Source: Paraspadella gotoi
Taxonomy: Eukaryota > Animalia > Chaetognatha
Assembly (NCBI GenBank): GCA_051294375.1
Contig: CM119263.1
Coordinates: 16,641,661-16,705,660, forward strand
DNA length: 64,000 nucleotides
Direction: 5' to 3'
Shown: positions 517 to 49,613 of the stretch, piece by piece
Layout of the letters: each line of letters begins with the position of its first letter
How positions within the stretch are numbered: position 1 is the stretch's first letter
Program-made: the position numbers and the translations under genes
Notes under the pieces: generated by a model
Told to the model about the DNA's origin: nothing
Seen by the model: the letters and a program-made list of their open reading frames with translations, nothing else
Database searches by the model: none

Positions 517-1092
517 ACCCTCCCCCTCAGGAAAAATGGGCGAAGGGGTCTTTTGTACTGAAAGAGTACATCTTTCGATCGGTAGAGGTTGTAAATCACA
601 AGTGATAACATCCCGTGAAATTTTCCAGCTCATAAACAACATCTTCTAGACAAGTATCTCGTAAATTGTCTGGACACCCAGGTGTTTATAATATTATAAA
701 AAACACATCAAAGAAATACAGTGATCGAAAATGGGAATCGATCCTTTCACCGGGTCGTTATATGTCAAGGAAAATAATTTATTATTTTGTATCACTACTT
801 AAGCAACAGGGACTTTAATTCGTTTCTCTACGGCCAACAGATTTTACGAATTTCTGATAGTTTTTTCCCCAGTTCTTTTTCAAGCAAAAAGGTACGTAAT
901 GAATAAGTAATAAAATCAAAGCAATAAAATCAAAGCACAATAGCACTAAGCAATGATAAGCGTAATAATTTGTTTAGACCAAACTCAAACTGTGTTAATT
1001 CATGGAATGTCCTGTTTTCGAAAGTTTAGGAATCGGTATGTATATGTTTACTAGGTATATTTATATTTTCAAATTTTAGTAACTCATCTATC

Positions 1093-2263: not shown

Positions 2264-2349
2264 ATCCTTTTGTAAATAACATTTCTGTTAGAATTTGTTT
2301 TTACTGTTAAAATTAGGTGAACCGATCATCAATTTCTTCTCGTAAAAAA

Positions 2350-3110: not shown

Positions 3111-3669
3111 GGAACAAATAGGTTCTCAACCTTCTTTCGAATATCAGACATTTTGATTGAGTTAATCAACAATTCATGATTTCATTTAATTGACACTTTC
3201 TTAATAAAATTTTTTATATATTCAAACAAGATTTTTCTTTCCCCTAAATTTGTAAACGACAAGATTTTAGCCATCTTCAGAAATAAGAATGTCTGGGAAA
3301 TCCTTTCCCTAAATCTCTTCAACGACAAAATCTTTGCCTCTTTACTGTTTTAGTTTAGTAGAAAAATCAGGTAATGACTAGTATAATACTTGGCACAAAT
3401 TCCTTTGCGATTTCAACAAAATGAAAGAAAACGAGAAGCAACACACGAAAATCTCATCATCTCAAAATTTTTTATTACAAACCACCACCCTTCCCCCAGG
3501 AAAAGGTGACAAATTAAATCCGTGAAAACACATAGAATACATAAGTAAAGATTAAACAAAAAGGTCAACTGTTGAGTGCTTCACCCTGACAAATGACCAA
3601 ATCGCGTGAGATCATATGAATAAATGAATAATTACATTTGATTTCCTCAGTCCTTTCTGACATTAAATC

Positions 3670-6600: not shown

Positions 6601-7340
6601 CGACGGGATGCTCATCAGGACTCACATCATCTCCACCGTCCTTCCTATCAGGCTTCATATCTAAGAGGTTTTGTCCCTCTTCTGGTTCCATCAGAATTTC
6701 ACATTCTGATGCCACTCCCATTGTTGTGTTTCTGTACAATTTTATTGGTTGTGTATAACCAATTATTAATTACAACTGGAACTATATTATTTTCTTGTTT
6801 CTTTATAACTGATCGAGATATCACAATGCCATATCTTCTGCAGGCAAACCCACAATCTATCTCCCAGTATTCACCTGGTATTTGATCAGTTACTTTTAGA
6901 TGAGTAATTAATTGTCTTCCAGCAGGAATAACAATAGTCTCGCCTAATTTTAAATTACACTCGTCTCGAGTTAATACAGTTTGTATTTTAGCCATATCTC
7001 CCATTTTAATATTTTCCACTTTATACTTTATAGCAATATTGTTACATTTAATAATTCCTTGATCCGTACATATCTGTACACGGAATTTTTTTCATACCAT
7101 TTAAACCTAGCAAACAAATACCTGATTCCTTTACAATGTAGAATTTAACGTTCTGGACAATTTATTTATGGTACAAGTTATATTCCCATCCCAACAGTAC
7201 TCATTTTCCTCCCCCTACCCCACTTAACGAAATATCACGGTCTGATTTCTACTGGACATTTAGTCTTTCCTAATATCTCATCTGAGATAACATTATATTA
7301 CTTCCCGTGTCCAACAAAATATGAATACTATCATTTTGTT
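3670..7340 (-). pseudogene. pol: pol of copy 1 (protease, RT, RNase H, integrase), many frameshifts; boundaries approximate
   Basis: LLDTGS protease motif near 7300; RLPFGL..APATF and AYLDDII (ORF 5902-6225); LAVDFSKIGVGYVL RNase H (5540-5779); HHCC and core integrase remnants near 4200-4800. Confidence 0.9.
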
Positions 7341-7699
7341 TTGGCCTATTTATATAGGAATATGGGGCCCAGGGTGGAGATATTAATCGTACAGATTGAT
7401 TCATCCCCGTTACCGATTATATTTTCATTTGGTGAAGACTCTGTCCTGGTGGCGTTACTCTCCTTCTCCGGGATCAAGACATCGGTTTCTTCGTCTTTAA
7501 AGTTGCCAAACGACAGGACAGTGATGAATCACCATCGTGACTCTGGCCGGGATCAACGAAGGTCGATGTAAGTTTCCATCGGCGGAATTGAAGTGGAGCG
7601 TCACTAAGAGTTTTGTCTTCACTGAGCACTGTTGTTGTTGTGTGAGGAATGAATCATTTTCGTCCCGAGATTCACTCCTCATGGATTCGCTACGACGAG

Positions 7700-9180
7700 G
7701 ATGGAGGATTAGAAGGTGGCGGCGGCGGATTTGATGGTCTTCCGCCGGGCGTTGGTTTCCCACCTCCCTTTTGCCTTTGAACGGCCGCTTGAAGTTTTGT
7801 CCTTTTCCCGTTCCTTTGTTCTTCGGTTTCTTTTCTCGGGATGTAACTTCCAACAGTCTGCTTTCACGTGACCTTGACGATCACATCCCCAGCAGGTGAC
7901 GTCGGACGATTTGGACGCCGTTCCTTGTCGTACCGGTTTTGTTCCCACGACGGCCACTACAGCTGCCGCTCCTTCCGAGATTCCCAAAGTTTCCATGGAT
8001 CTGGCCTTTTCTATGGCCTCGTCAAGCGTTTTGGGGAATAGAAGTCGCAACTTTTCCCCTAGCTCACCTTGGAGATTTTGGGTAAATACCTCAAAGCTTT
8101 TTGTTCAATTTGTTTATTTGTGTATTCATGCCCATAGGCTCGTACGGCCAGATTTCTCAGCCTGACACCATAGGCCCTCAGATCTTCACCTTGAGTTTTC
8201 CGGGCCGTCAGGAGCTGATATCGAGATGCCAAATCCAGGTCTTTCTCCATCACCTTGACAAGATAGTCGCGCAGTTCCTCGTAGGTGACGTCTGTTGTTG
8301 TCGGCGATATAGTTTGTCGCCAAAATTGAGGCATTTCCGACGAGTAGTGATAAAAATTTGGAACGCCAGTTTTTTGTTGGTATTTCACAATCTCGTGCCT
8401 CGTTTTCGAAAGTGATGGCGAGAGCCCTAATAGACTGGCCATCCGAATACCTCGGGAAATTAGGCTTCACCGGTACCGACATCCTCATTATGCGAGGCGG
8501 AGGGACTCCTCGGCGAGCTCCAGAGGCAGGAAGCTCGACGACTTCATCTTCTTCGTCGTCGGATCGTCGCCTCTCCTCTCTCCTGCTGCCGCTCCTCCGG
8601 TTGCTCCTCCGGTGGCTCCTCCCAATCCTCCTCCACCACCACCTGATCCTCCACCACCTGATCCTCCACCACCACCTGATCCTCCTCCACCACCTGTAGT
8701 CCTCGGCGCCGGCATGTCGACGACGTCCTCTCCTCTGTCGACTTGATCTTCTTCTGCTTCATTTTTTTCAGAAGTTCTTTGACGCCGATCGACCTCATCA
8801 AGCCGCGCCTCCAAGTGTTGGAAGCGCAACGCCAATCCGTTGATGGCTGCCAATAGGTGTGTTGCCGTTACCTCTCGTCCCGGCGCTTCCATCGGTGTTG
8901 GTGGTCGTTGGATTGGTTGTGGCGGCCCGGTAGGATGGGGGTGGAGAGGGTTCCGGACGCGAGGGGGCGTCGCAGCGAGTGGGTGGCGGTAATTGAAACA
9001 GTTCGTCGGCCGAGAGTTGCGGAGAGAGGCCATCGGTCTCGCGCCTCTCTCTCCTCCGTGACGACTGTTGGGCTTCGTCGGCCGGGCTCTCGAATCTCGG
9101 AGCGTAATTCGAGAAGGATACTGCGGCGTCGGCCGATGGATTGTCCCCGGTGGAGTCGGTTCCTGTTCGTCGCCTTCCAT
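7700..9180 (-). pseudogene. gag: gag of copy 1 with Gly-rich linker and CCHC zinc knuckle
   Basis: CWGCDRQGHVKADC knuckle in ORF 7709-8050; capsid-like QGEDLRAYGVRLRNLAVRAY in ORF 8059-8442; begins just downstream of the PBS. Confidence 0.85.
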
Positions 9181-9299
9181 CCCGAATGCAAAGCGAGGAG
9201 AAGAATACTATTGATTCAAGAAGGACGGCGATGACTCCCGTTGTGATGAAAGCGGTGGTAGCAAATTTTCTGGACAGACGCAATCAGAGTTGTTCATTG

Positions 9300-9316
9300 A
9301 TCCTGGCAAGTCGCCA
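9300..9316 (-). other. Primer binding site of copy 1 (possibly tRNA-Arg type)
   Basis: TGGCGACTTGCCAGGA, 3 nt inside the 5' LTR; complementary to a tRNA 3' end (...TCCTGGCAAGGTCGCCA by copy 2); tRNA identity is inferred. Confidence 0.8.
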
Positions 9317-9319
9317 ATT

Positions 9320-9671
9320 TGTAGCGTCTCTAGCTACTGAACTCTGACTGAGGCTGTCCAAGATGAATAAAAAGGTTTGAATAAGTTTATTTCTATTTAC
9401 AACAAAAAGTTAAGCAATTTGGTGCGGAGAGGAACTGAACTCCTCTCTTCTCTTGCCTTCCCCTTTTATATCTTTCTGAGACCTCCTTGAAGATATTGCG
9501 CAACCGGATCTTTGGATTTCACTGGGATTGTGAAATCCAAAGCCGGCCTTTCTCTAAGTGGGTGGGAAAACCGCAATCATCTTTTCTTGGGTTCTATTTT
9601 TACTTTTATACCCCCCACGATTTTCCCTTCGACCATTTAGTTATTAATAGAACAAAGATCGTGATGCTACA
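9320..9671 (-). repeat. 5' LTR of copy 1
   Basis: TGTAGC...GCTACA ends; TATAAAAG and AATAAA in element sense; followed by PBS. Confidence 0.95.
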
Positions 9672-31100: not shown

Positions 31101-31429
31101 TGTAGCATCACGATCTTTGTTCTATTAATAACTAAATGGTCGAAGGGAAAATCGTGGGGGTATAAAAGTAAAAATAGAACCCAAGAAAAGATGATTGCGG
31201 TTTTCCCACCCTCTTAGAGAAAGGCCAGTGAAATCCAAAGATCCGGTTGCGCAATATCTTCAAGGAGGTCTCAGAAAGATATAAAAGGGGAAAGCAAGAG
31301 AGAGAGCAGTTCAGTTCCTCTCCACACCAAATTGCTTAAATTTTTGTTGTAAATAGGAATAAAACTTATTCAAACCTTTTATTCATCTTGGACAGCCTCA
31401 GTCAGAGTTCAGTAGCTAGAGATGCTACA
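31101..31429 (+). repeat. 5' LTR of copy 2 (with ~20-bp internal deletion)
   Basis: TGTAGCA...TGCTACA; lacks one arm of the internal hairpin near 31226. Confidence 0.95.
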
Positions 31430-31432
31430 AAT

Positions 31433-31450
31433 TGGCGACCTTGCCAGGAT
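31433..31450 (+). other. Primer binding site of copy 2
   Basis: TGGCGACCTTGCCAGGAT directly after the LTR. Confidence 0.85.
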
Positions 31451-31570
31451 TAATGAACAACTCTGATTGCGTCTGTCCAGAAAATTTTGCTACCACCGCT
31501 TTCACCAAAACGGGAGTCATCGCCGTCCTTCTTGAATCAGTTGTAATTCTTCTCTTGCTTTGCATTCGGG

Positions 31571-34500
31571 ATGGAAGGCGACGAACAGGAACCGACTCCA
31601 CCGGGGACAATCCATCGACCGACCCCGCAGTATCCTTCTTGGAATTATGCTCCGAGATTCGAGCGGCCGGCCGACGAAGCCCAACAGTCGTCACGAGCGG
31701 CAGAGAGAGGCCGAGACCGATGGCCTACTCTCCCGCGCAACATCGGCCGGACGAACTGTTTCAATTACCGCCACCCCGCCACCCGCCTACGTGGAACCCT
31801 CTCCACCCCCATCCTACCGGGCCGCCACAACCAATCCAACGACCACCAACACCGATTGGAAGCGCCGGGACGAGAAGGTAACGGCAACACACCTATTGGC
31901 GGCCATCAACGGATTGGCGTTGCGCTTCCAACACTTGGAGGCGCGCTTGATGAGGTCGATCGCGCGTCAAAGAACTTCTGAAAAAAATGAAGCAGAAGAA
32001 GATCAAGTCGACAGAGGGAGAGGACGTCGTCGACATGCCGGCGCCGAGGACTACAGGTGGTGGAGAGGATCAGGTTGGTGGTGGGAGGATCATGGTGGTG
32101 CTGGAGGATCAGTGGTTGGTGGAGGAGGATCGGGAGGACGCGAACCGGAAGGACGCGGAAGAGGAGGAGGAGGAGGGGCGACGATCCTGACGACGAAGAG
32201 ATGAACGTCTCGAGCTTCCTGCCTCTGGAGCTCGCCGAGGAGTCCCTCCGCCTCGCATAATGAGGAGTCGGTACCGTGGACCGGTGAAGCCTAATTTCCC
32301 GAGGTATTCGGATGGCCAGTCTATTAGGGCTCTCGCCATCACTTTCGAAAATGAGGCACGAGATTGTGAAATACCAACAAAAACTGGCGTTCCAAATTTT
32401 TATCACTACTCGTCGGAAATCCTCTATTTTGGCGAACAAACTATATCGCGAACAACAAGACGTCACCTACGAGGAACTGCGCGACTATCTTGTCAAGGTG
32501 ATGGAGAAAGACCTGGATTGGCATCTCGATATCAGTCCTGACGGCCCGGAAAACTCAGGTGAAGATCTGAGGGCCTATATGGTGTCAGGCTGAGAAATCT
32601 GGCCGTACGAGCCTATGGGCATGAATACACAAATAAACAAATTGAACAAAAGCTTTGGAGGTTATTTACCCAAAATCTCCAAGGTGAGCTAGGGGAAAAG
32701 TTGCGACTTTATTCCCCAAACGCTTGACGAGGCCATAGAAAAGCCAGATCCATGGAAACTTTTGGAATCTCCGAAGGAGCGGCAGCTTGTAGTGGCCGTC
32801 GTGGAACAAACCGGTACGACAAGGAACGGCGTCCAAAAATCGTCCGACGCACTGCTGGGATGTGATCGTCGATCCTGAAGCAGACTGTTGGAGTTACATC
32901 CGAGAAACGGAGGAGCGACGACAATTCACCACTACCACCCCGGCGGAAGGGACCATCACACCACCACCACCTGTCATAAATCATCCAGCCATCGTCGTAA
33001 AGCGATCCAAAATGAAGGAATAGGTGAAAAATCTCGGAACGAAAGTGATTCATTCCTCACAACAACAACAACAGTGTTCAGTGAAGACAAAACTCTTAGT
33101 GACGCCTCCACTTCAATTCCGCCGATGGGAAACTTCACATCGACCTTCGTTGATCCCGGCCAGAGTCACAACGGTGATTCATCACTGTCCTCGTCGTTTG
33201 GCAACTTTAAAGGCGAAGAAACCGATGTCTTGATCCCGGATAAGAAGGAGAGTAACGCCACCAGGACAGAGTCTTCACCAANNNNNNNNNNNNNNNNNNN
33301 NNNNNNNNNNNNNNNNNNNNNNNNNNNNNNNNNNNNNNNNNNNNNNNNNNNNNNNNNNNNNNNNNNNNNNNNNNNNNNNNNNNNNNNNNNNNNNNNNNNN
33401 NNNNNNNNNNNNNNNNNNNNNNNNNNNNNNNNNNNNNNNNNNCTGGGCCCCATATTCCTATATTAATAGGCCAAAATCAAAACGATAGTATTCATATTAT
33501 GTTGGATACGGGAAGTAATATAAATGTTATCTCAGATGAGATATTAGAGAGACTAAATTGTCCAGTAGAAATCAGACCCAGTGATATTTCGTTAAGTGGG
33601 GTAGGGGGAGGAAAAATGAGCACTGTTGGGATGGGAATTATAACTTGTACAATAAATAAATATGTCCAGAATATTAAATTTTATATTGTAAAGGAATCAG
33701 GTATTTGTTTACTAGGTTTAACTGGTATGAAAAAATTCCGTATACAAATATGTACGGATCAAGGAATTATTAAATGTAACAATATTGNNNNNNNNNNNNN
33801 NNNNNNNNNNNNNNNNNNNNNNNNNNNNNNNNNNNNNNNNNNNNNNNNNNNNNNNNNNNNNNNNNNNNNNNNNNNNNNNNNNNNNNNNNNNNNNNNNNNN
33901 NNNNNNNNNNNNNNNNNNNNNNNNNNNNNNNNNNNNNNNNNNNNNNNNNNNNNNNNNNNNNNNNNNNNNNNNNNNNNNNNNNNNNNNNNNNNNNNNNNNN
34001 NNNNNNNNNNNNNNNNNNNNNNNNNNNNNNNNNNNNNNNNNNNNNNNNNNNNNNNNNNNNNNNNNNNNNNNNNNNNNNNNNNNNNNNNNNNNNNNNNNNN
34101 NNNNNNNNNNNNNNNNNNNNNNNNNNNNNNNNAGTAATAAAGAAACAAGAAAATAATATAGTTCCAGTTATAATTAACAATTGGTACACACAACCAATAA
34201 AATTGTATAAAAACACAACAATGGGAGTGGCATCAGAATGTGAAATTCTGATGGAACCAGAAGAGGGAGAAAACCTCTTGGATATGAAGCCTGATAGGAA
34301 GGACGGTGGAAATGATNNNNNNNNNNNNNNNNNNNNNNNNNNNNNNNNNNNNNNNNNNNNNNNNNNNNNNNNNNNNNNNNNNNNNNNNNNNNNNNNNNNN
34401 NNNNNNNNNNNNNNNNNNNNNNNNNNNNNNNNNNNNNNNNNNNNNNNNNNNNNNNNNNNNNNNNNNNNNNNNNNNNNNNNNNNNNNNNNNNNNNNNNNNN

Positions 34501-37208
34501 NNNNNNNNNNNNNNNNNNNNNNNNNNNNNNNNNNNNNNNNNNNNNNNNNNNNNNNNNNNNNNNNNNNNNNNNNNNNNNNNNNNNNNNNNNNNNNNNNNNN
34601 NNNNNNNNNNNNNNNNNNNNNNNNNNNNNNNNNNGCATAAGGCGATAGTTGATCCTCCCCGTCGTTATCCTATCAAAAAACAAAAGGCAATCCAAGAACA
34701 TGTTGATAAATTAGAATCAATAGGAATAATAGAAAATAAGAAAAAGCACAGATGCCTCAATAATCTTTCCTTGTCTGTGTGACAAGAAAAAGACCGATGG
34801 ACCTTATAGAGAAAAAATGCAAGAATGGGCAATAGACATATAGAAAAATAAATTCTATATACTTATACCCATAGTAGTTTAATCCCTAGAATGTCTTGAT
34901 GTTTTAGACGTCGTATATCAAAGGGAAAAAATAAATGGTTTTCTACTATAGATTTAAATTCTGCATTTTATAGAATACCCATGGCACGCGACAATCAATG
35001 CAATATACTGCTTTTCAGGTGCCTAATGGGTCTACTTATTCTTACAATCGCTTACCCTTTGGTTTGTTTAGCACCAGCTACTTTTTTATGCTATGGCGAC
35101 AAAAATGCTGGCTGGAATTTTCATGGCAGAGTGCTTTGGCTTACCTTGACGACATAATTGTTTTCATCCGTAATGATTTCAACTTGAGCATGTTGAGGAG
35201 GGTCCTATGTCGTTTAGAAGATCGGATGAAAGTAAAGCATCAAAATGTTTCTTTTTAGAAACACCATTAAATCTTCTAGGCAATCTTAATCAGGGATGGC
35301 GTGAAGGCAAGATGTTAGGAGAATCACACCACAATTGACCGATCAGCGAGCGGTTAGAATGGATGACACATCCTACAATGGTAAAAGAGGTTCAATCTTT
35401 CGTTGCATTTGCAAATTTTTATCGCCGTTTTGTTTCCGGGTTTTCTGTCATAGCAAGACCTCTCTATCGGTTGACGCAAAAAGAAATTAAATTTGATTGG
35501 ACAGAGGATTGCCAGAAGGCATTTGAAAAATTAAAAGAATTACTCTGTGCTGATACTTGTTTGGCACCTCCAAATTTTGAAAAAGAATTCCATTTGGCAG
35601 TGGACTTCTCAAAAATCGGAGTTGGATATGTATTAGCGCAAATAGATGATTCAACGGGAAAAATGAGACCTATTTTATACGGATCTCAGGCTCATAAGAT
35701 TACGACTAAAGCCTTTAAAGGAGAAAATGATACAGAAAGTAGTTATGTAGGAGAATTAAAGGCCCTTGTAAATTCGATGGAAGCTTGGAAGGCTTATCTG
35801 TTATCAAATAATAATTTTACAGTATATACAGACTGCAAGTCTCTTGTTTACCTTTTAAGGACATCGTCATCTAAAGAGCAATCACCATTTGTTGTGCGTT
35901 GCTTTAGGACGATTAGCTGTTTTCGGGTCCACGTGGAAATTGAAACACGTGGCGGGCACCCGCAATATTGCGGCGGATACGTTATCTCGTATCCGAATTG
36001 AAGAGACTCCCACGGGAACTTGGGAGGAGATCTGTCGAGGGATTTGACAGATCAGTTGGTAGCGCCGGTAATAACAAAAACCCTGCAGGGAAAGCTGGAT
36101 CTGTTGACCCTGAGCAACCTTGGACCCTGATCAAGTTCAAGAACCAGCTGCATGGCAAGATTGGCGCACCTGGCAAGAAAAAGACGGCGACTTAATGAAA
36201 TTAAAAGAATGGATAGAAAAGGAGCTCCGGATAAAAAGATCGCCAGAAGGTTTAGCCCAGCCTTAAGGTCTTACTATGCATCTTTGGAACAATTTGGCAT
36301 TCATGATAATGTCATAGTGAGAAAATGGACTGATGCATCAAATACTGAAGAAGTAAAAAATTTACCCGTCGTGCCAGAAAAAAGGATTCTTGATATTCTT
36401 TTTCTTGCGCACGATATGATGGCCCATCCGGGAATCCAAAGGATGCGAGACCTGATAAAAGATAAATATTATTTTTATTCCCGAAGTACAGCTATTATGA
36501 ATATGTTTCGTCCTGTCAAATATGTTTAAGACGAAAAAAAAACTAATCTTAAAGCCCCACTTGTTCAAGATTCTGCAAAATTCTTTAATGAAAGAGTAGC
36601 ATTAGATTTAAAAATATTACATAAACCATCCAGGGATGGGTATCGTGCTATTTTAGTATGTATTGACTATTGGTCAAAATATACGGTTTTATGCAATTTA
36701 AAATCAGAAACAGCATCTGAAATCTGGACAAATTTTTATAATCAATATGTCAGTTTATTGGCGTACCTAAGACACTAATGACAGATAATGCCGTTGTCTT
36801 TAAAAGCCAAAGTAGCAAGGATTTTTATGACATTATGGGAATTAATAAAACTCATACGTCCAGTTTTCATCCACAATCTGATGGATTAGTGGAAAGACAG
36901 ATGCGAAGTTTAAATTCAATGCTTTCAAAAATCCTCATGGAAGTTGAGGAAGAACAAGTAAAGCTTGGAATTGTAGACCAAGCTGATTGGGGAGATTTAA
37001 CTAAGAAAGTACAATTTGCATTAAATGCTTTACCTTCAAAAGCCACTGGATTTTCTCCATTCAAAGTAATGACAGGTGGAGGAGAAATGTTCACTCCTCT
37101 ATCATTAAGATATCCATTGGAAGATGCTCGACAAGTTCAAGAAGAATTGCCTAACGCAATTAGAGGATTGCAAGTTCGTCAGTCGAAAATCTTTCAAGCA
37201 GTGGCCAA
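31571..37208 (+). pseudogene. gag-pol of copy 2 (frameshifts, N gaps), up to the nested insertion
   Basis: LDTGS (33499), AYLDD (34998-35258), RNase H (35363-36001), AHDMMAHPG, TDNA..HPQSDGLVER (36778 onward). Confidence 0.92.
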
Positions 37209-40200
37209 CAAGTATTCATCCTCAGATTCTTCTTCCCGGGGCGATAGTGTTAGGGGCGGCCCTCGGGTGGCCCGCGGGGCGGCCCCGAGGGGCAGCAATC
37301 CCTACCGCCTGGGGTGCGGCCCTGGGGCCCATTTTTTTGGGCCCCAAGGGGCCGCCAGGGAATCCCCAGGGCTATAAAAATCTTTTCCCGCGGCCCCCTC
37401 GCCCGCCCCCCCGCCTCGCCCCCCCCCCCCCGATGGTAATGGTGATGAATTTATTTGCCTGCCCCCCGAACGGGCTCTCTCCTCTCTCTCCCTCTCTCTC
37501 CTCTCTCTTCCTCTCTCCCTCTCTCTCTCTTTCTCTTACTTTACATTCTATACTACGTATATATTTTTTTTCTTTATCATTTCTTCTTCCATTACTTTGT
37601 TGGTATTTTCTAATCAGCTTACAACTTCAACTGTAATATTTTTTATTTTATTCAATTCATTCATTCATTTGCTTTTTTTCTCTGTACTCTCTCTTTGCAA
37701 TGAAAAAACTGAATTGCATATAACCTCCCGAATAGTACTGAAGTTTCAGACCTTTTAAAAAATTAAATATTCTGTTTTAAAAAAACATTTTTTTATATTT
37801 TTACATAAAATATGAATACAAAATAACAAGTTAACAATGAATGGAAACAAACAAATATTGTAATAGTTGGCTTGCATTTTCTTTTTTAATGACGTGAACC
37901 AAGTCGTGGGTCGAAGGGATCTTTGGTTGCTTGATCGTCAGAACGAAGACGCATTGATTCCACGTCGTGGCGAACATCAACGACGTTTGGTGCCCACTTT
38001 CGAAAAACTTGCCGTTCCGGGTTGCGCCTCTTCCTCGTCCTTTGGCACGTCTACGGTCGTTTCATGGGCGTAGCCACAAAATTTTTTCTCTGGCTTTCGA
38101 GAGAATACTGAGATCGTCTGTACCTAAAAAAAAATCACGACTTTCGTCTGCGTTGCAAAGCAAAGACCATCCTAGGTATAAGCGCAAGGTTGGAAAACCC
38201 AATAGTGAACAGTGAGATGCCTCATCCGCAATGGATCACAGCCAACCCGGCTGGTTGCCCATACAACTCTCGGAAAAGAAAGCCAGAAATCGTAAAGATT
38301 AAGTTTTAATAAATTACAAATATTGTCTTTGCTTATCTTTCGTTGCGTTTGAAATAGTAGAATATTAAATAAAATTTTTGTTTCGTTGACAGACAAAAAA
38401 AAAAAATATTTAATTCAACACTCACCAAGTTTTAAAGCGATCGCTCGATACCCGGTCTGGTCCTGAAGAGCAGCAAGCACCAACCACCGCACCGCATCCA
38501 ATTATGGGATGCGCTCTGTTGGCGGCCATCCTCTTCAGGTCCATTAGTTCTTCGAGATGTTGTTGCTGATATAAATAAATAACGGATCGGTCGGTATGCT
38601 TCGGGGCGGTACCAGTTGGCTGGCGGCATTGTTAGGTACATGTCGCAAGTAGTTTCGAGTTGCGGTTGACGACAAATGAATTGATTATGCCTCTTGATCT
38701 ATGTCCTTTTCTGTTTGTTCCGTGTCCTGTATGTATGTTGTTCTGCTCTGATGTTTGTTTTCCGCGATGTTGTTGTTCCTGCCAACGTATGTGTCTGCCG
38801 ACGTTGATTTGTTGTTCCTGCTGACGTTGTGGTCCTGCTGACGTTTGGTTCTGTGGATAAGAGCGCAGTGGGCTGAAGAGACTGATCCGTAACTTCTATA
38901 ACCCCCTTTAGTAAGCCATGGAACCGCGGGTCTGCTGCGGCTTGGAACCAGCTTTGCAGGGGTTGCCACGACGCCCCAGAGCGGCTTACGGCCGTCTCAC
39001 GCTCCCACAGGTTCAGGTCCCGTTGGGGATTGTAACCCAGGTTACCTAGTGGCAGATAGTCTGATGGCTTCCTTACTAATGACCCACCGGCCGTAGGAGC
39101 TAAGGCTCATCTTATAGGCGGGGTGAACCTAGGCATACATGCCCGACTACATGCCCCCCAGACTGTACACCACCGCTGGCACTGCTTCCAGTGGGAGGCG
39201 AGGGAGCAATCTTCAGCACTGTCAGTGGGCCTGAATTCAGGAAGAGTCTGGAATACGCTCGACAGGATGGGCTCACCCAGTGGTATAAGTCGGCTAAAGA
39301 TGGCGACTGAAAGAATGACTATCCGTTAACTTCTATAAACCCTCCTTTAGTAGCCATGGAAACGTTGGTCCTGGTGGCTCAGGCTGAGAGGTGCGTTGTT
39401 TAGTGCTGTTATGTGTGGGTGCTTGCCACGACCCCCCAAGGCGGGCTTACGCCGTCGCTCACCGCTTCCCCACAGGGTAGGCGTACCCGGAGTTGGATCT
39501 GAACTCAGGTACCTAGTGGTCCATGAGCTGATGGCTTTACTCCAAGAGAGCCAGCGGGTTCAGGACCTGAAGGTCTGCTTGATGCTTATAGGCGGGGTGA
39601 CTAGCAGATGCACGACTACAGTTCCTGCTACGTTGTGGTTAGCGCCGTGCGCCTGAGTTGTTCTCTTCGTTGCGTCTCTCTTGCCTCTAGCGTTGTGGTT
39701 CCTGCTGACGTTCTGGTTCCTTGCTGACGTTTGTGGTTCCTGCTGACGTTGTGGTTCCTGCTGGACGGTGTCTCTGGTGTGTCTTGCAACGTTGTCCTGC
39801 ACGTGTTCTGTGAGTCGTCCTGCTGACGTTGTGGTTCCTGCTGATCGTTTGTGTTCCTTGCCTGACGTATTGTTCCTGCTGACGTTGTTGTTGTTGTTTG
39901 CACAGTTGATTTCTTGGCATTCAGCTTGTTGCCTTGTTCTTGTTGCTTGCTTCTCCAACAGAATACTGATCCGCAGTCTTCCGCTAGGAATAACGAACGC
40001 TCTCCAACCCGTAAGTGTCGCTAGGAAGAACCCTTTGAAATCGAAATCAACAAATATTATTTACTCCTTTTATCGAGGAAGGAAAATGATGTTAAGTAAA
40101 ATACAAAAGCAGAGTGATAATAAAAGAACGGAGAGGAGAGAATAAAAGGGGAAAAAAGCAGTAAGGACATTAGAGAAAGAGAGACCGAGTCGAATGAGTT

Positions 40201-43200
40201 GAGAAAACAGGAGGAAACGAGCAAAAAGAGGAAAGGAAAAGAGAGCCAAAAGGAAAAGAGAAAGAAATAAAATATCTAAAACAAGAAAAAAAGAAAAAAA
40301 AAAAGAGAAAAAGAGAGGATGACAAAAGAGAAAAGAGAAGAGAAAGATACCAAACCGGATGTAAGAAGAGCTGAGAGACCGACAAAGAAAGAGAGAGAAA
40401 GAGAGAGAGAAAGAAAAAGAGAAAGAAAGAAGAACGAGAACAAAGAGAGAACAGACAACAGACGAGAAATCAGATGCGCCATGAAAGAGAGAAGAAAGAG
40501 TGAGAGAGAGAAAGAAAGAAAGAAAGAAAGGACACAGAAAAAAAAAAGTTCACTTTCATTTGTCTTCTAAAACAAAGCTTACTTATGCGCGACGTATCAT
40601 TTCAAGTGAATAAATTGCTTGGAGTTTGATCCATGGAAGAAAAATCTGGTAAAATTCCGGCCTTTCTCTGAGGTTGCCCCCAACCACAGATTGTTTGCTG
40701 CGTCGACTTTCCCCAATACATAGCGACAAACTAAACGGCGCCAAATACGTCCTATAAAAAAGACATGTATAATATAGAATGTTATGCTAAATTATAAGAG
40801 GAAAACCAAAAAGCATTTTCAGGTACGAACTCCGCCTACATTAATAAACTTAATCGAGGTCAATGCAAGGTCAATGAAAGCTCATTTAACAACACTTATC
40901 GAAAACTTACCCTCCCATCAGTAGTATGCTAAAATGTCGATAGGATTAGGGAACGAGGCGCGGGGCAATGATCGTCTCGAGAGGTTCAACTCGGCATAGC
41001 ATTTTGTTGACGCAAAAAACATAATGCTTATATTGATAAAAAAATTCTTGCCGAATGAGCTTCCAAATGCATTTTTCCAGTTCGTTGGTGCCCGGATTGC
41101 GCGTTTTAGAAATATGACCAGAACATTGATTTAAAATGATTTAGTTTTTTTTTTAAAAAACTATTACCTTAAATGTTGAGTGATCGAGGATCCGCCGATA
41201 GATGAGAAGAAATTCATCGTAGAAAACTTATTGTCAAGGCGCTTCTGTTTTTAAAGATTGGCAGATTTTTATGAGTTTTAAAAACTTTTTATTCATGATG
41301 CTGATGGAAGAAAAATTACGGGCATATTGTGAAAGATCCGTATGGAATAAACCTTCTTAAATCTTTTATCTTGAGGTGAGAATATTATGCTAAATAACAA
41401 CAACAGGGTAACAAGCAAAGAGGGTAGAGAGAACGAGAGCAAAAAAATAGGAGAGAAAAGAAGAAAGAAAAAAAAAGAAAATGAGAGAGAGAGTGAGAGA
41501 GAGAGAGAGAGAAGATGAGAAGAGAGAGAAGAGAGCAGAGAAATGCAATCGAAAGTTTTCGCGCTTGTTGAAGATAAGAGTATTTCCAAAAAAGACAGGA
41601 AATTTAAGTTCAAGATTTTGTCCTTCCCGTAGGAGGAACGAGGTTAAAGAAAGCTGCCCAAATTCCACGAAATATTGACCATATTGGCGATGAACGACTG
41701 ATGGATCGTTCGCAAAAAGGAAATTTTTTTTTGTGTTAAAACAGAGGCCCAAGAGACAGAGAAAAAAAAAGAAAGAGGGAATGACAACAACAATATCAAA
41801 CTGACGAAAGCTGACCTACCTCCTGACCTGACCTGACCTTGATACTAACCGTTTTATTATTTTTTTAAGTTCTGCCAATGCCTTTTTCCTCATTTTAGAT
41901 TTATGCTTTTCACCTTCAAAAACGTTTCTTCTTCTTAAAGTGCTACAACAAGAAGCCAAAAAAACTGAGAATAATTTTCTGATATTTCAACTGCTGTCGC
42001 AAAATGTGCCTTCCCAAATTCAAACCATCCTCAATTCAAGGCTTTCGAAAAAGCATTCTCGGTTCTTCCCCGCACACAAGCCTTAGTTGCTACGGCAGTT
42101 AGACAAAAAACTGTCGATTATTAAAATATTCTTTATATCATCTAACCAAAACCAGACGTTCATGGGACATTGGTTTTAATCTGTCATGCCCAGTCAGCCA
42201 AAAATTTCAAACGACGATCATTAAAGATTCTTTGTCAACTTGGTTTCTCAGATGAAGAGATACGAAATATTGCATGATTAACAACAAAAATTCATGAGCT
42301 GCATCATGCAAAGAATACGGTCCAGATTTGCATGTTGTTTTCAAATATATTCATTTTGGATTATAGTACACACGAAAACCACCGACAGTCGCAATTGTAG
42401 CAAGCTTGAATTCAGAAGTTATCCAACTTCTGACAGTTCCAGACCCTGATTCAGTTTTTTCTGAAGGCACATACGGTTCTACTGACGACAGGTGGAGCAA
42501 AATAATTTATTAATCTGTCAAAAGCAGGACTGCCAGTTCATAATAACTAATCTTGCAAGCATTGCGGAATATTTTACAAGAAACTTGGTGTAGAACCAGA
42601 AAACGCATTTCCTTACCATCTGAATCCAAGATGAATTACAAACTTTTCAAATTTCTTCTAAAAAAAAAAATATCACATATGCCTCTAAAACCAGAAGTTG
42701 CGCGTTAAAAATAGAGAAAAATGATTCACCGTGGTTGAGATCGATACCCCACTTCCATTTAATTCCACATGATGAAGGTGTTTTGAAACACGGCTTTCAG
42801 TTTCGCCGACGATGGACAACAACCACGCTAGAGATTTCCACTAATGCAAAAATAATACAGCAATCTACAATTATCCAACAAAACATTTGCGTATAGTGCT
42901 TTAGGCAACAAGTGGACCAATGCCGATTGTCTGGCAAGCAGCTATGATGGCCTCGATTACCGCTTCTATTAAAACGTCAACAATGAATTTTGGTTACCAC
43001 CACTCTTTTTTAACTTTTCTGCTCAATTTTTGGAAGGCCCTACATCTATATGCTTTTTCTAAGCAAATTCGATGTTAAACAAAATGCTACTTCTTATCCA
43101 GAAAATAGCCTTTGGATGTGATAAACATATACAGAATTACAAAAAATGCCATGGCAAGATATTAAATCTCCTTGAAATCTCCTTTTTTCGAATTTGATGA

Positions 43201-45650
43201 AAATTGTCCTGACAGTAACTGCAATGTTTCTACAGGCGCAGGACAACTTTATCTCACAAATAAGTATCAGTTTGTAGCAAATAACTACATGACCCTGTTA
43301 CCTGAAAAATGAGAAGGTTGAAAAAAACTCAGTGTGTCATCCCGTCTATATCAACGCCAGTTATAACTTCTAAAGATCTTCGTTGTTCTTCTTTGAAAAG
43401 TATTCTGAGAGTCGAGAGAAAAAAGAATGGAGAGTTAATTTTAAAAACAACCATCTTTAACGCCACCAGAATTATACACTTAGATAAATTCTCTCAACGT
43501 GCAGTGCGCCATCGAAACTCTGAGTAAGTTTATAGCAATGCACCAATTTAATGGAAGAAGAATTTTGCTTTCCTTCTTCCAGCGCCTCGCCTTATTTTTT
43601 TTATGCAGCTTCTCGCGCCTGATCCGTTGGCATCAGTTATTCAGACCGATACAGATTTTTCGCAATTTATTAATCAATAATTGCTACATGGTGAGAAAGG
43701 TTTGATACGACAGGATTTTCGAATTTTAGAAGAATTAAAAAAATAAACGTACCCCATCATCTACCACGCCTTATCAAGAATTATCAGTGCATGAACAAGA
43801 AATTGTTTTACAGAGCTCTTGTTGACATTATGAGTTGCTTCGTTAGCTTCTTTCCATTTTAAATGACCTCATGCATCCTTACTGAACCATTAGATATTAC
43901 CCAAAACGAGGATACATATTCCCTTGCTTCCCAGTTTCCCCTCGAATTCGTCCTCCCTCGAATTACGGCGGTGATCCATCTCAGATTGAAAAACCACGTG
44001 CAGGAATTTTGTCGTAAAAAATAGTTACGGACATCCTCCTTACATCCCGGCAATATTTCTACTTAAGTTGTCAACACAAATATCTCTTAGGCTTCAATTC
44101 ATGTAAAGCCGAGGTCCTCGGTTTATCATCATCTTCCTATATACAAGGTTCAAATCGTGCGCCAAAAAACATTATTCAATGATGACAATGCGTGAAACTT
44201 ATTTAAATTTTTCACAACAGAGAGCCAATCTTTTATTCTGATTCCATTTTTTTTGATCGACCGTTTTCATATTTTAAAAACCATACTCATTGCAGTTGTC
44301 ATCATTTAATATTGAATTCCGATCACTTCTTTTTCAACAATAAACTGCTCAAGGAACGGAACAAACCTAAACAGAATTTTTAAAACGATTAGTTTTCTTC
44401 AGTTTCATACATGAAACCAAAAAACTTCAAAACCTCTATGCTTTGCTCTTATGGCTTTTCATAATTATTGCGCCAAAAGCATTAATTATATCTAATCTTT
44501 ATTTTAATTTATTAAAATATTTTTTGTTAACGATTTTAAATTTGTCATACATTTTAAATGTATTGATGTCTGAAATTATAATATTCAACTGTTGTTGAAC
44601 TCATTTTTTTACTCTCACTTGCCTATAACAATTACAGAATATTCATAAAATTAATACGCGCCAAGCATCAATCATTATCTTTTGACCAAAAAAAGCAGAT
44701 ATGAGAGATGTAGGAATTAAAAACAAAAGCAAAAGTTCTTAAGTCTCATCGACCTTAAAAAAGAATAACTAATAATACTATCAAACGTGAAAAGAAAATT
44801 CGGTTGCAGTGGTCGCGTTGGCTTATAATTAAATAAAAGCCTATTGAAATATGTGTTGAATAACGATGAAGAGCAGGAAGCCGAACCCGTATTATTAAGA
44901 ACGGAATCTACCACCAAGGCCAGGAGAAGAGATGATTAGTAAAGTTATGATTACATTGACTTAGTGCCTCATACCAAGTTGACGAATAATTTTTTTTATA
45001 ATTTAAACGAACAACTAAACGTAATGAAGAATAATATATCGCATTGAGCTCCTGCATTTTTGATTAGACTAGGAGATTACATAATTTTATGTATCTTTTT
45101 AATATTTCAACAAAAACTATGAGAGAGAAATTGAATTGAATTAAGAACATATAATGTGAGCTTTAAGCTCCGTTTCACAATAACTGCCTTTAAAAGATGA
45201 ATAGTTCTAAGCGACTTTCTGATAACTACACTCAATAAGTAGGGCTTGTAATCGTCTTCTTAATTCATTCAAAAATACAGTATGGTGAACCTCTTTCGAA
45301 CTGCCGCAATTCGATGACAGTTGTTTCTATTATGGATCACCCGATCCCACACTGAGCTCTCTCTCTTTAACTCGCCCCCGGGCGCAGCATTATTTTGCTC
45401 CCCGACGGGCTACCCCCAGGAGCAGGCGTCTGTTTGGGCCCCGGGCGGGCTTAGCATTAGGGGCGCCCCTAATTAGACGCCAAAATGTTTGCCCCAGGCG
45501 AAACCCCGGGGGCCGGCCCCGGCGGCAATCAAGAGGGGCGCGCCCCTCAATGACCATTTTTCTGCTCCCCCCCGGAATAGTTCCGCCCCGGGCCGCCGCC
45601 CCTAGAGCCGCGCCCACGGGCGGCGATTTCCTGGGATGATGACATATCTC
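37209..45650. mobile_element. ~8.4 kb insertion in the copy 2 integrase C-terminus, with GC-rich loosely inverted ends (probable DNA transposon)
   Basis: CAGTGGCCAA at both 37199-37208 and 45651-45660; copy 1 is uninterrupted here; both ends GC-rich and share TAGGGGCGGC in inverted orientation; interior is noisy and no transposase could be confirmed. Confidence 0.65.
38765..39900 (-). repeat. Two diverged ~270-bp SINE-like copies (about 38885-39150 and 39322-39620) embedded in an 18-bp minisatellite
   Basis: Duplicated segment with B-box-like GGGTTACAATCCC on the minus strand; repeated GTTCCTGCTGACGTTGTG units. Confidence 0.5.
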
Positions 45651-46049
45651 CAGTGGCCAAAGCCATACTGAAGTAGAAATGGAAAAACAAAAATGTACTA
45701 CACCCCCCCCCCCCCACTTAAGAGCCAGTATTTCCCACTTTTAAAAAAGACTATTTAGTTTTTATACCGAACAATATTATGCTACAACCCAAGTGAAACT
45801 AAATCATTCAGCGCTCAGTTTTTTAAAACTCACTTTATCGTAAAAGAATAGTTGAGTGACGTAAATTATGTCATAGAGCCAGTTGAGACGAATGATGAGA
45901 CAAAGACAAATGCCCCTCGCAGAAAAGAAGCAAAAGTAGTCCACGCAAATCAATTGCGATTAGTGGCTAACTCCACAGGTGTCGCTGCAAAAGTAATAGA
46001 AACGAAGGGAGAAAACAAAAGACCCGTTCGAAAAAGAAAAAGATTATGA
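45651..46049 (+). pseudogene. 3' end of copy 2 pol (integrase C-terminal region)
   Basis: Matches about 3670-4055 of copy 1; SDVNYVI...VVHANQLR typical of gypsy integrase C-termini. Confidence 0.8.
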
Positions 46050-46615
46050 TTTAATGTCAGAAAGGACTGAGGGAAATCAAATATAATTATTCATTTATTC
46101 ATTTGATCTCACGCGACTTGGTCATTTGTCAGGGTGAAGCACTCAACAGTTGACCTTTTTGTTTAATTTTTACTTATGTTCTCTATGTGTTTTAACGGAT
46201 TTAATTTGTCACCTTTTCCTGGGGGAAGGGTGGTTTTGTTGTAATAAAAAATTTTTGAGTTGTTGAGATTTTCGTGTGTTGCTTCTCGTTTTCTTTCATT
46301 TTGTTGAAAATTCGCAAAGGAATTTGTGCCAAGTATTAAACTAGTCCTTACCTGATTTTTCTACTAAACTCTAAACAGTAAAGAGGCAAAGATTTTGTCG
46401 TTGAAGAGATTTAGGGAAAGGATTTCCCAAGACATTCTATTTCTGAAGATGGCTAAAATCTTGTCGTTATACAAATTTAGGGGAAAGAAAAATCTGTTTG
46501 AATATATAAAATTTTTATTGAAAAGTGTCAAATTAAATGAAATCATGAATTGTTGATTAACTCAATTCAAAAATGTCTGATATTTGTAAGAAGGTTGAGA
46601 ACGTATTTGATTTCC

Positions 46616-47393
46616 TTATCTGAATCTTTTAGGAAGTGATCCTTTGGTAGTTCTTGTGCTCCGCCGAGGAGGTTGACTGGAACTGAGATTAGACGAAGGA
46701 GTTGAGACGGAAGGATCAACTTGAATACATGGACTTGAATAAGGGATTTTCGGAATAGTATCTGGAAATATCTTGTCTAAAGTTGTTTCTTCCTCTTTAA
46801 GATCGAGTTCCTCCATCTCAATAACGGTTGAGGTGTTTTCCAAAGGATGACGAGTAGAAGGACGAAATAAACTAAACTTCTTTAATAGAAGAACGGCAAT
46901 AAGTAAAACAGCAACGATTAATAAGGCAAGGACGATCTGTAAGTAATAAAAGAATTTTGTTTTCTCAAAATATATAATCATTTATTTAATTCTGTTTAAC
47001 CTGAGACGGACCCAGTTGAAACCAAGAAGATGAAGGGAATGCCGTAATAGATAAAACGGGAATTGACGTGTTTGTAGAAGACGGAAAAGCAGTAGTAAGG
47101 GTCGTGGTTGAATCCGAGAACAAAGGAATGTTTGTTCGAAGAGAATTAAAAAGCTTGGACAAATGCTTCTGCAAGGATGAAATAGTTGACGTCACTATGG
47201 ATGTTGACGTTAATGGAATAGTAGAAGGCGAAGCTGATGAAGTCTTTTGAATTGGAACAGCTGACGGGCGAATGTTTAAAGTCTTAGGAGCGGCTTCATA
47301 GTCGTAATAGTTTGCCCCAGGATCCACAAAAAACTCATAAATATAATCGGCAAAGCTAATCGGTATAAAAATCAAAAAGAAAAGAAAAAACAT
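46616..47393 (-). CDS. Antisense cargo gene B: spliced mucin-like type-I membrane protein (intron 46937-47000)
   Basis: Signal peptide MFFLFFLIFIPISFA; YYDYE; S/T-rich stalk; in-frame splice to TM IVLALLIVAVLLIAVLLL-KK; tail ends RRSTRTTKGSLPKRFR; downstream AATAAA. Confidence 0.85.
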
Positions 47394-47476
47394 TTTTTAC
47401 AAGAAAATTGGTGATCGGTTCACCTAATTTTAATGATAAAAGCAAATTCTAATACAAATGTTTATTTACAAAGGAT

Positions 47477-48671
47477 TTACAAAGTAGTAGAAGGGACTGA
47501 AGAAGAAATAGTCGTAGTCGCAGAAGAAAAGGAAATAAAAGGCCTAGGAGGAGGTCTAGAAATGGAACTGAAAGGATTAATTCCCTGTAATAAAGGTGTA
47601 AAGGGATAATGAAAGGAAGGATTAAAAGTATTCCAAGAGTATGAATAAGGAGAAGGAAAAGAAACTCTATAACTAGGATTAGTTGAAGTGGCAGTAATCG
47701 TAGGATAAGTTGTAGAGGAAGTATTTACAATGGTTGGAATATAAGGGTAAGGAACAAAAGGAGGGGGAATAGGTAAAGGAGGAGGGGGAAAATGAGAAAT
47801 AAAAGAAGCTACAGAAGAAGAAGTTATAATAGGGACTGTTACAGAAGAAGTAACAGAAGAAAAAGTAACAGAAGAAGAGGTAATTGGCAAAGAGGAAACA
47901 ATAGAGGAGGAAGGAATGCTGTCATCGGAAGGTTCTCTTCCGATGGACAGGGGGCGTTTCCTCGTAACGATATTCTTCCTTGGTTTTGGAACAATGGAGT
48001 TACCTCCTCGGGAGAGATAACCCATAAGAGGAGGAAAAGACCCGAAGATCTTTTCCTCCTGCTCATTCTGGATCCTTGCCATTTCTGGAGTGGGTCGTCG
48101 AGAGGGATCGGAGATCCTTATTAGAAATCCCCCGCAGTAACTGTGAATATCATCCTCGGGAGCTAGATATTGTTCCGGGTTAATAATACCGCCCGGAACC
48201 CCAATGTGGCCCTCTATTTCCGTACGGGATCTTCCCGTAACATTGGCCACAGCGGGGTTTTGCGTTTCACGAGGATGACAAGCGCACTTAAGATAAAAGA
48301 AATAAATATATATATATATAAAGAAATATAAGAAATAATGGAATTACCCTTATTCCTGCGAGGCTGGATGAGATCCAGCGAAGTTCGGGGTCTTTTCCGC
48401 ATGACGAAGTATGTAAAAACCAGGCCGAGATCGTGGGTGCATTTCTACAGGAGGAAATGGGTTTTTCCTCCCTTGCAAAGGCGACCAGGCCTAAGCGAGC
48501 ATGACGCCGCAGGATGCGGCAGTCAAGCTGCATCATCTCGGCGGCCCCTACAAACTGGCCGAGATAATCTAGAATTTTTCGGACATCCGAAAAATCGGAA
48601 GTCACAAGAGCCACTGGCTCCTGTGACAATCCTTTTACAGAAGAGCTCGATGCGGAAGGAGCCACAGCCAT
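47477..48671 (-). CDS. Antisense cargo gene A: spliced unknown protein, globular Cys/His-containing N-half and S/T/P-rich C-half (intron 48287-48347)
   Basis: AGG|GTAATT...CTTAAG|TGC joins exon 48348-48671 in frame to ORF 47477-48250; AATAAA just after the stop; probable 5'UTR intron 48685-48727. Confidence 0.85.
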
Positions 48672-49245
48672 GATAGATGAGTTACTAAAATTTGAAATAT
48701 AAATATACCTAGTAAACATATACATACCATTCCTAAACTTTCGAAAACAGGACATTCCATGAATTAACACGGTTTGAGTTTGATCTAACAAATTATTACG
48801 CTTATCATTGCTTAGTGCTATTGTGCTATTGTGCTTTGATTTTATTGCTTTGATTTTATTACTTATTCATTACGTACCTTTTTGCTTGAAAAAGAACTGG
48901 GAAAAAACTATCAGAAATTCGTAAAATCTGTTGGCCGTAGAGAAACGGATTAAAGTCCCTGTCGCTTAAGTAGTGAAACAAAAGTAATAAATTATTTTCC
49001 TTGACATATTAACGACCCGGTGAAAGGATCGATTCCCCATTTTCGATCATTGTATTTCTTTGATGTGTTTTTTATAATTTTTACAAACACCTGGGTGTCC
49101 AGACAAATTTACGAGATATGTGTCTAGAAGATGTTGTTTATGAGCTGGAAAATTTCACGGGATGTTAACACTTGTGATTTACAATCGTCTACCGATCGAA
49201 AGATGTACTCTTTCAGTACAAAAAGACCCCTTCGCCCATTTTTCC

Positions 49246-49257
49246 TGAGGGGAGGGT
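49246..49257 (+). other. Polypurine tract of copy 2
   Basis: TGAGGGGAGGGT abutting the 3' LTR. Confidence 0.85.
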
Positions 49258-49609
49258 TGTAGCATCACGATCTTTGTTCTATTAATAACTAAATGGTCGA
49301 AGGGAAAATCGTGGGGGGTATAAAAATAAAAATAGAACCCAAGAAAAGATGATTGCGGTTTTCCCACCCACTTAGAGAAAGGCCGGCTTTGGATTTCACA
49401 ATCCCAGTGAAATCCAAAGATCCGGTTGCGCAATATCTTCAAGGGGGTCTCAGAAAGATATAAAAGGGGAAGGCAAGAGAGAGAGGAGTTCAGTTCCTCT
49501 CCACACCAAATTGCTTAACTTTTTGTTGTAAATAGAAATAAAACTTATTCAAACCTTTTTATTCTTCTTGGACAGCCTCAGTCAGAGTTCAGTAGCTAGA
49601 GACGCTACA
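49258..49609 (+). repeat. 3' LTR of copy 2
   Basis: TGTAGCA...CGCTACA; matches the other LTRs. Confidence 0.95.
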
Positions 49610-49613
49610 TAAT

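Follow-up and report, generated by a model that had tools for sequence, protein, structure and literature searches.

We identify in the 64-kb window (the whole stretch of DNA analysed here) a Ty3/gypsy-type LTR retrotransposon whose two copies both carry, between pol and the 3' LTR, a cassette of two genes antisense to gag-pol. The cassette is real, under selection and at least partly spliced. It is a variant of the arrangement termed aORF-3R, and its architecture is not new in kind; an earlier sequence-only reading of this DNA, which presented it as an undescribed system, went too far, antisense ORFs in this slot being a described class (PMC7264820; the available part of PMC11963269). What is unusual is that it comprises two orphan, intron-bearing genes, one of them with a product predicted at the cell surface. 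We consider it fairly probable that the two conserved antisense genes of this gypsy family, a putative nuclear regulator and a putative surface mucin-like protein, serve the element. That the cassette is a selected, element-borne accessory module we regard as very likely, and the specific roles—nuclear helper and surface coat—are tentative assignments that may well be wrong.

The LTRs with their target-site duplications (TSDs), the primer-binding site and polypurine tract, and the domain order identify the host as a Ty3/gypsy-type LTR retrotransposon (Table 1). Self-alignment within the window matches the two copies across their LTRs, gag, pol and cassette, and as each has its own 4-bp TSD (AACA in copy 1, TAAT in copy 2), they are separate insertions. 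The LTRs are about 350 bp long, begin with TG and end with CA, and are 97-99% alike at aligned letters, with 3 to 9 letter differences between pairs. Pfam recovers RVT_1 (in copy 1), RT_RNaseH, Integrase_H2C2 and a weak zf-CCHC, and together with tblastn gives the order RT-RNase H-integrase. The primer-binding site may match an arginine tRNA; a tRNA gene scan of the window finds no tRNA gene there. The closest RNase H relatives share at most 43% identity and bear no family names. In a tree of RT/RNase H, for which copy 1 was read through frame breaks with X at the breaks, copy 1 sits next to P0001 (91/92) on a long branch; this position is separate from the main cluster of chromodomain-bearing elements and in no clade that could be named. 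One-base indels are frequent in copy 1 and in the 5' part of copy 2, with 61 gaps against a single 2232-nt contig of sequencing run X7. These are likely for the most part assembly errors, and hence the frameshifts there say little about decay.

Table 1. Features of the retrotransposon copies and of the antisense cassette, in window positions
Feature	Positions	Strand	Remarks
Copy 1 of element	168..9671 (about)	-	~9.5 kb; TSD AACA; from self-alignment
Cassette in copy 1	1093..3110	+	many one-base indels, like copy 1 gag and pol
Copy 2 of element	31101..49609	+	TSD TAAT; from self-alignment
5' LTR, copy 2	31101..31429	+	TG...CA; TSD TAAT just before
Primer-binding site, copy 2	31433..31450	+	begins TGG; after 5' LTR
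gag and pol, copy 2	31570..37208 (approximate)	+	protease, RT, RNase H, integrase order; N gaps, many one-base indels
Insertion in copy 2 integrase	37209..45650	.	8.4 kb; target duplication of 8-9 bp; copy 1 lacks it
Integrase C-terminus (pol 3' end), copy 2	45651..46049	+	PF22938, E 0.0017
Second polypurine-tract-like copy	46214..46234	+	18/21 identical to 49240-49260
AATAAA after gene 2	46514..46519	-	copy 2
Gene 2 exon 2	46616..46936	-	18-residue hydrophobic segment, basic residues, 88-residue tail, stop
Intron 2	46937..47000	-	64 nt, GT..AG, 83% AT, phase 0; skipped exactly in X7/X8
Gene 2 exon 1	47001..47393	-	hydrophobic N-terminus (predicted signal peptide), Ser/Thr/Pro-rich region
AATAAA after gene 1	47461..47466	-	copy 2; 68 nt ahead of gene 2 ATG
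Gene 1 exon 2	47477..48286	-	Cys/His-bearing N-part, KPRK-x5-RKRP basic patch, Ser/Thr/Pro-rich tail, stop
Predicted intron 1	48287..48347	-	61 nt, GT..AG, 87% AT, phase 0
Gene 1 exon 1	48348..48671	-	108 codons from best-context ATG; frame open from 48755
Upstream region of gene 1	48672..49239	-	non-coding; TATA-like hexamer at 49076
Polypurine tract	49240..49257	+	before 3' LTR of copy 2
3' LTR, copy 2	49258..49609	+	TSD TAAT just after

Gene 1 has 377 codons counted from the ATG at 48671, one of four in-frame ATGs (48755, 48725, 48719 and 48671), and gene 2 has 237. All four exons stay open across both phase 0 joins, and exon AT content is 47-61%, against the far higher values of the two introns (Table 1). 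When the best two-gene spliced model is sought without bias, introns 1 and 2 are exactly the ones chosen, with 1926 coding bases of 2201; none of 1500 block shuffles reached 1842 coding bases, the largest having 1095. The plus strand of the cassette region yields no two-gene spliced model, and no sense ATG ORF between pol and the LTR exceeds 111 codons. The cassette is seen in both of the element copies in the 64-kb window (2/2), and in copy 1 the introns lie at the same positions as in copy 2 (1414-1472, 59 nt, and 2726-2790, 65 nt) with GT..AG retained, although the first AATAAA, that of gene 1, lies where the sequence is gapped and is incomplete. The alignment of the copies thus upholds the structural core of the sequence-only reading: two genes antisense to gag-pol in about 3 kb between pol and the 3' LTR of both copies, GT-AG introns that join the exons in frame in copy 2 and recur at the same positions in copy 1, and an AATAAA after each gene in copy 2. 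Its end point for gene 1, 48730, is abandoned, as the ATG there is out of frame. The second polypurine-tract-like copy, for which chance would give 0.01 matches, is identical in copy 1 (3484-3504) and brackets the cassette. Further candidate genes were rejected: the antisense ORF 46364-46561, which contains a 38-nt repeat, is for now set aside as a third gene for its lack of codon constraint (pN/pS 0.85), and the sense ORFs 48332-48673 and 47777-48124 were discarded, the first with 0 synonymous and 23 non-synonymous differences.

The gene 2 protein has a hydrophobic N-terminus, a region with 39% Ser/Thr/Pro and no cysteine, an 18-residue segment with a hydropathy of 3.27, basic residues and a tail. 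From this hydropathy and composition we predict a signal-peptide-bearing, mucin-like, type I membrane protein at the cell surface. The gene 1 protein lacks a clear membrane segment; its N-terminal half contains six cysteines and its tail is of low complexity. Its KPRK-x5-RKRP patch resembles what we take to be a nuclear signal, and a nuclear location appears likely. Exon 1 of gene 1 is a strongly conserved orphan domain: none of 753 candidates among longer proteins proved homologous to it, and a search against 1.84 billion representatives returned nothing at E 0.001. The unspliced ORF likewise had no homologue among 72 proteins of near length. The ESM Atlas gave no usable match, PDB sequences, viral contigs and metagenome contigs no homologue, and Pfam no match for any cargo exon at E 0.05, with PHROGs and NCBIfam equally blank. 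AlphaFold models made from single sequences were of poor quality (pLDDT 42 and 53), and the fold search found nothing under E 1.8. The HMM and structure searches proposed in the sequence-only reading have therefore come back blank, with the exons queried singly rather than as joined proteins, and hence at lower sensitivity; the large protein collections were queried with gene 1 exon 1 only. A SAM-like pattern noticed by eye in this exon has no Pfam support at E 10. Among 80 distant gypsy loci (32-42% identity) there is no tblastn match to the cargo, and a comparable AT-rich antisense intron model is absent from all 18 (among 34 hand-picked of the 80) for which 2.5 kb or more of downstream sequence was available; these loci are too diverged to speak for the family of copies 1 and 2. 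A gene that flanks copy 1 on its outer side (minus strand, 10596 to about 9672) has the same layout of signal peptide, mucin region, intron and membrane segment.

Selection was estimated from copy 1 against copy 2 only, at sites away from the indels in which the assembly is rich. In the antisense frame of gene 1 exon 1 there are 20 synonymous versus 3 non-synonymous differences (pN 0.014, pS 0.29, pN/pS 0.05, p 7.5e-11), and the mirrored plus frame contains 2 stops; the pN about equals that of the RNase H control (pN 0.015, pS 0.16). The first half of gene 1 exon 2 gives a pN/pS of 0.30 (p 0.005), and the Ser/Thr/Pro tail one of 0.73, a non-significant constraint (p 0.26). For gene 2, pN/pS is 0.32-0.41 (p 0.002-0.03, depending on padding) with a pN of 0.04-0.06, a weaker constraint than in gene 1 exon 1; in its exon 2 the mirrored plus frame matches the minus frame in score (0.29), yet has 4 stops. 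As 9 of the 15 gene 2 variants listed for X7/X1 are non-synonymous, albeit mostly conservative, against 6 synonymous, gene 2 is only moderately constrained. On these estimates purifying selection acts on the antisense frame of both genes, the tail of gene 1 excepted. Upstream of gene 1, 48672-48990 shows 3 differences in 216 usable bases. Divergence between the copies is about 5-11% in most coding 200-nt bins of the cassette, 1-3% in the LTRs and mostly below 5% in gag-pol, and synonymous divergence descends from the gene 1 exon 1 value through that of RNase H to near 0 in part of the integrase. This mosaic suggests recombination among copies.

An alternative, which we regard as unlikely though not negligible, is that the element captured the cassette from a host or a DNA virus and carries it as a passive rider, whose codon constraint predates the capture and which brings the element no benefit. 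Its introns are indeed short, AT-rich and host-style, the gene flanking copy 1 shares the layout of gene 2, the two polypurine tracts bracket the cassette as a capture might leave them, and capture of different alleles could explain why it is more diverged between the copies than pol. However, the differences between copies are mostly synonymous and gene 1 exon 1 is constrained like RNase H, the flanking gene has no detectable homology to the cargo gene (E 0.11), further cassette variants occur at high depth in runs X1 and X6, and gene 2 is spliced in element-type sequence. We prefer to view the cassette as an accessory module selected within the element.

Eleven sequencing runs are listed, none recorded as RNA, and seven of these (X1, X5, X6, X7, X8, X10 and X11) were compared through their unstranded contigs. 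A contig of X7, at depth 26.6, skips intron 2 exactly, with the joint 46936/47001, and the same joint is found on copy 1 in X7 and X8; as the tables of these two runs are identical, they are one dataset filed twice. In the deep DNA run X1 intron 2 is present at a depth over 70 and the joint is absent. The skipped piece is canonical GT..AG on the minus strand only, at every allowed shift, and hence points to an antisense precursor if X7 is RNA. That X7 is RNA is no more than a guess: when filed again as X8 it is labelled DNA, and it holds the intron-bearing flanking gene (9733-10737) unspliced. We conclude that intron 2 is likely spliced from a minus-strand precursor, as observed in one RNA-like dataset. 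The joint of intron 1 occurs in none of the seven runs compared, of which X7/X8 do not cover gene 1, and X10 and X11 are of other organisms and give low-complexity matches only. Record 20 of X6 is unbroken over 48273-49286, and records 9 and 10 of X5 reach 14 nt into intron 1; both runs cover mainly 47645-49620, leave gene 2 uncovered and hold the copy 2 flank junction. Their "DNA?" label is doubtful because the study they come from also filed X8, a duplicate of X7. If X5 and X6 are DNA, their reads into intron 1 are uninformative; if they are RNA, these reads weigh seriously against splicing of intron 1, which would then be retained unless the RNA is sense. Coverage holes in the runs prove nothing, and differential expression of genes 1 and 2 cannot be read from them. 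Of the two junctions singled out in the sequence-only reading, 46937-47000 is therefore found (X7/X8, one RNA-like dataset) and 48287-48347 is not (0/7 runs). Its broader claim, that the family transports spliced genes in antisense, gains from the two insertions with TSDs, the selection and the skip of intron 2, and falls short at the joint of intron 1.

A further reading, to our minds distinctly unlikely, has gene 2 spliced and gene 1 mostly not, so that intron 1 is retained to give a 127-residue protein with a hydrophobic tail and exon 2 becomes a separate or minor product. It would account for the absence of the joint and for the X5/X6 contigs that enter the intron within an RNA-like pattern of coverage; the acceptor is AAG rather than C/TAG, and read-through adds 19 mostly hydrophobic residues before a stop. 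This is countered by the first half of exon 2, which is constrained in the splice-joined frame and whose first 68 codons lack an ATG, and by copy 1, which keeps GT and AG while the intron interior differs in length by 2 nt; moreover, X5 and X6 carry a DNA label and the flank junction, and their holes in coverage have no weight. For gene 1, too, we keep the spliced model.

The cassette lies where env would be expected, and "in place of env", as the sequence-only reading put it, stands as a statement of position and of nothing further. With one membrane segment followed by basic residues, gene 2 could be an Env substitute passing particles between cells, like sORF2/FAST of Drosophila MDG1 elements, and an sORF2 lies downstream of pol in 7/22 lepidopteran consensus sequences (10.1101/2025.03.14.642691, in its available part). 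More generally, gene 2 shares with these sORF2/FAST-like proteins of the MDG1 group and with the ORF3 of bdelloid LTR elements the property of being a non-Env membrane protein from an animal gypsy element (available parts of 10.1101/2025.03.14.642691 and PMC5408684). Such a role is nonetheless very improbable: in the part of 10.1101/2025.03.14.642691 available, the sORF2/FAST-like candidates are all forward, short and often myristoylated, whereas gene 2 is antisense, has 237 residues with a hydrophobic leader, lacks an MG start and the MGxxxS/T motif, and has a Ser/Thr/Pro-rich outer part with 0 cysteines. The bdelloid elements have TM-bearing ORF3s, and the available part of PMC5408684 mentions no antisense ORF3. 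An Env glycoprotein would be a sense ORF3 with a large, cysteine-bearing ectodomain and a fusion peptide; here the longest sense ORF has 111 codons and gene 2 exon 1 is cysteine-free. Finally, it is hardly credible that AT-skewed filler DNA produced the ORFs and introns by chance and that the X7 skip is an assembly artefact. Homologues are lacking, much of both proteins is of low complexity and there is a single dataset, yet this reading is largely refuted already by the shuffles (0/1500), the codon constraint (pN/pS 0.05) and a skip whose ends, on copy 1 as on copy 2, fall at the predicted GT..AG.

In the sense genomic RNA the two introns have CT..AC ends; by the rules of splicing this RNA would hence keep them and reverse transcription would copy them, in agreement with the sequence-only reading, which held antisense introns to be invisible to splicing of the genomic RNA. 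Splicing acts on transcript-sense introns only, and in engineered antisense-intron retrotransposition reporters the intron lies in the sense of the element RNA and so is lost; the cassette shares this strand logic, but its introns lie in the cargo sense and so are kept. The cassette hence survives each transposition, and it needs minus-strand transcription of its own. Between the 3' LTR and 48671, where gene 1 starts, there are eleven ATGs, and hence an internal promoter fits better than a start in the 3' LTR. Together with the TATA-like hexamer and the 3/216 differences, these ATGs suggest that an antisense promoter likely lies within the upstream region of gene 1 rather than, as the sequence-only reading suggested on the model of HBZ, in the LTR. 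We propose that minus-strand transcription would begin at promoters inside the cassette, one upstream of gene 1 and one for gene 2 within the end of gene 1; the latter would overlap gene 1 because the genes are only 83 nt apart. The second polypurine tract may be a capture scar left by a template switch, or may serve as a plus-strand primer across the added 3 kb. Least certain are the roles of the products: gene 1, with an ordered N-domain, a basic patch and a low-complexity tail, might support transcription of the element or counter its silencing, and gene 2 might coat the surface of expressing cells or of particle-carrying membranes. Taken furthest, the cassette could be a swappable, host-style antisense module, evolved in an animal gypsy lineage, that pairs a nuclear counter-silencing factor with a surface mucin shielding cells or moving particles without Env, that recombines faster than pol and that a second plus-strand primer helps to copy—a speculation we consider unlikely in this complete form.

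ORFs that run antisense in the space from pol to the 3' LTR are described from maize Grande (gene23), rice RIRE2, Silene Retand, bean PvRetro13 and Botrytis Boty (brtn), with functions unknown (PMC7264820; the available part of PMC11963269). The Grande gene23 product is nuclear and its gene has its own promoter (PMC7264820), a precedent for the internal promoter and the nuclear location proposed here. All Retand clusters have antisense ORFs, mostly with TRP28, and the word "intron" has 0 occurrences in the available part of the source (PMC11963269); PMC7264820 urges that spliced antisense transcripts be examined. The cassette is like these in belonging to a gypsy element with a pol-to-LTR region of about 3 kb, in having antisense ORFs in the copies seen and in its pol-like conservation. 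It differs in its two tandem orphan genes with short internal introns, one encoding a predicted type I membrane mucin, and, from Retand, in that the cargo has neither PF04195 (TRP28) nor any other Pfam domain (E 0.05). Its host organism, moreover, is a plant by no evidence here and, to judge by the short AT-rich introns and mucin-like genes, is likely an invertebrate. For Boty brtn, antisense cargo with introns may have been published before. In the open literature we came across no gypsy element of an animal that bears two spliced antisense genes as a cassette, nor one with a mucin gene in antisense; Repbase/Dfam, supplements and subscription journals lie outside this scope and may hold the family. 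The antisense extra genes so far described are mostly single, nuclear or function-unknown ORFs of plants and fungi, and what they do for LTR retrotransposons has yet to be settled (PMC7264820; the available part of PMC11963269). If the cassette benefits the element, retrotransposons could keep ordinary multi-exon genes by holding them backwards, and could act at the cell surface without Env; its two junctions and two small proteins make it directly testable.

Retroviruses offer the closest likeness in splicing. HBZ of HTLV-1 is spliced and starts in the 3' LTR, HTLV-2/3/4 have the APH antisense genes, and HIV-1 ASP is membrane-associated (PMC10186651, in its available part). HBZ, APH and ASP overlap sense genes, with HBZ and APH-2 starting in the 3' LTR, whereas the cassette genes occupy their own space and have short internal introns. 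Common to both are spliced antisense protein-coding transcripts inside an LTR element, observed here for gene 2 in one dataset, and the nuclear HBZ and membrane-associated ASP parallel the locations predicted for the products of genes 1 and 2 (available part of PMC10186651).

The two insertions of the Ty3/gypsy-type LTR retrotransposon, copy 1 and copy 2, are separated by DNA that encodes a protein-primed-type DNA polymerase B in pieces, which suggests, from the domain match, that a Polinton-like or DNA-virus-like element lies between them. The ORF at 25188-26537 (minus strand) had no match in the family search. The left flank of copy 2 carries a 69-nt tandem duplication at 30581-30718. The insertion in the copy 2 integrase has GC-rich ends and a target duplication of 8-9 bp, and resembles, and may be, a hAT-type DNA transposon.

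Features in and around the two element copies
Feature	Position	Strand	Remarks
Protein-primed-type DNA polymerase B, in pieces	13247-14659, 17578-19452, 21593-22198	plus	PF03175, E 4.9e-17
8.4-kb insertion	37209-45650		interrupts integrase of copy 2
Flanking gene	10596 to about 9672	minus	adjoins copy 1
Candidate third intron, GT..AG, 68 nt, 81% AT	46561-46494	minus	beyond gene 2 stop

Copy 1 is inserted near the 3' end of a gene whose product has a hydrophobic leader, a Thr/Pro-rich region and a membrane segment, and whose two introns (10077-10011 and 9950-9894) are short, AT-rich and GT..AG. This layout is like that of gene 2, the predicted mucin gene of the antisense cassette; a sequence comparison of the two gave no similarity of significance (E 0.11). 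One contig of the sequencing run X7 spans 9733-10737 of the flanking gene, unspliced. Runs X7 and X8 are a single dataset filed twice, because their contigs are identical in length and depth; their labels differ (RNA? 2018 versus DNA? 2025).

Shortly past pol lies a polypurine-tract-like second copy (46214-46234 in copy 2, 3484-3504 in copy 1), identical in both insertions. Downstream of gene 2, a 38-nt direct repeat (46385-46422 and 46451-46488, 76%) has short matches in further contigs of runs X1, X5, X6 and X7, where the flanks are unrelated. The spliced form of the candidate third intron was not seen in the aligned run contigs.

A contig of X6 (record 19) matches 48190-48289 with 2 differences and then continues for ~840 letters unlike exon 2 of gene 1, the other cassette gene, hinting at a variant element with a different exon 2 tail, or at an insertion. 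In X1, X5 and X6, joints at 49116-49207 and 49243-49391, with short sides (24-25 letters), skip 90 and 147 nt; these are possible deletion variants close to the 3' LTR.
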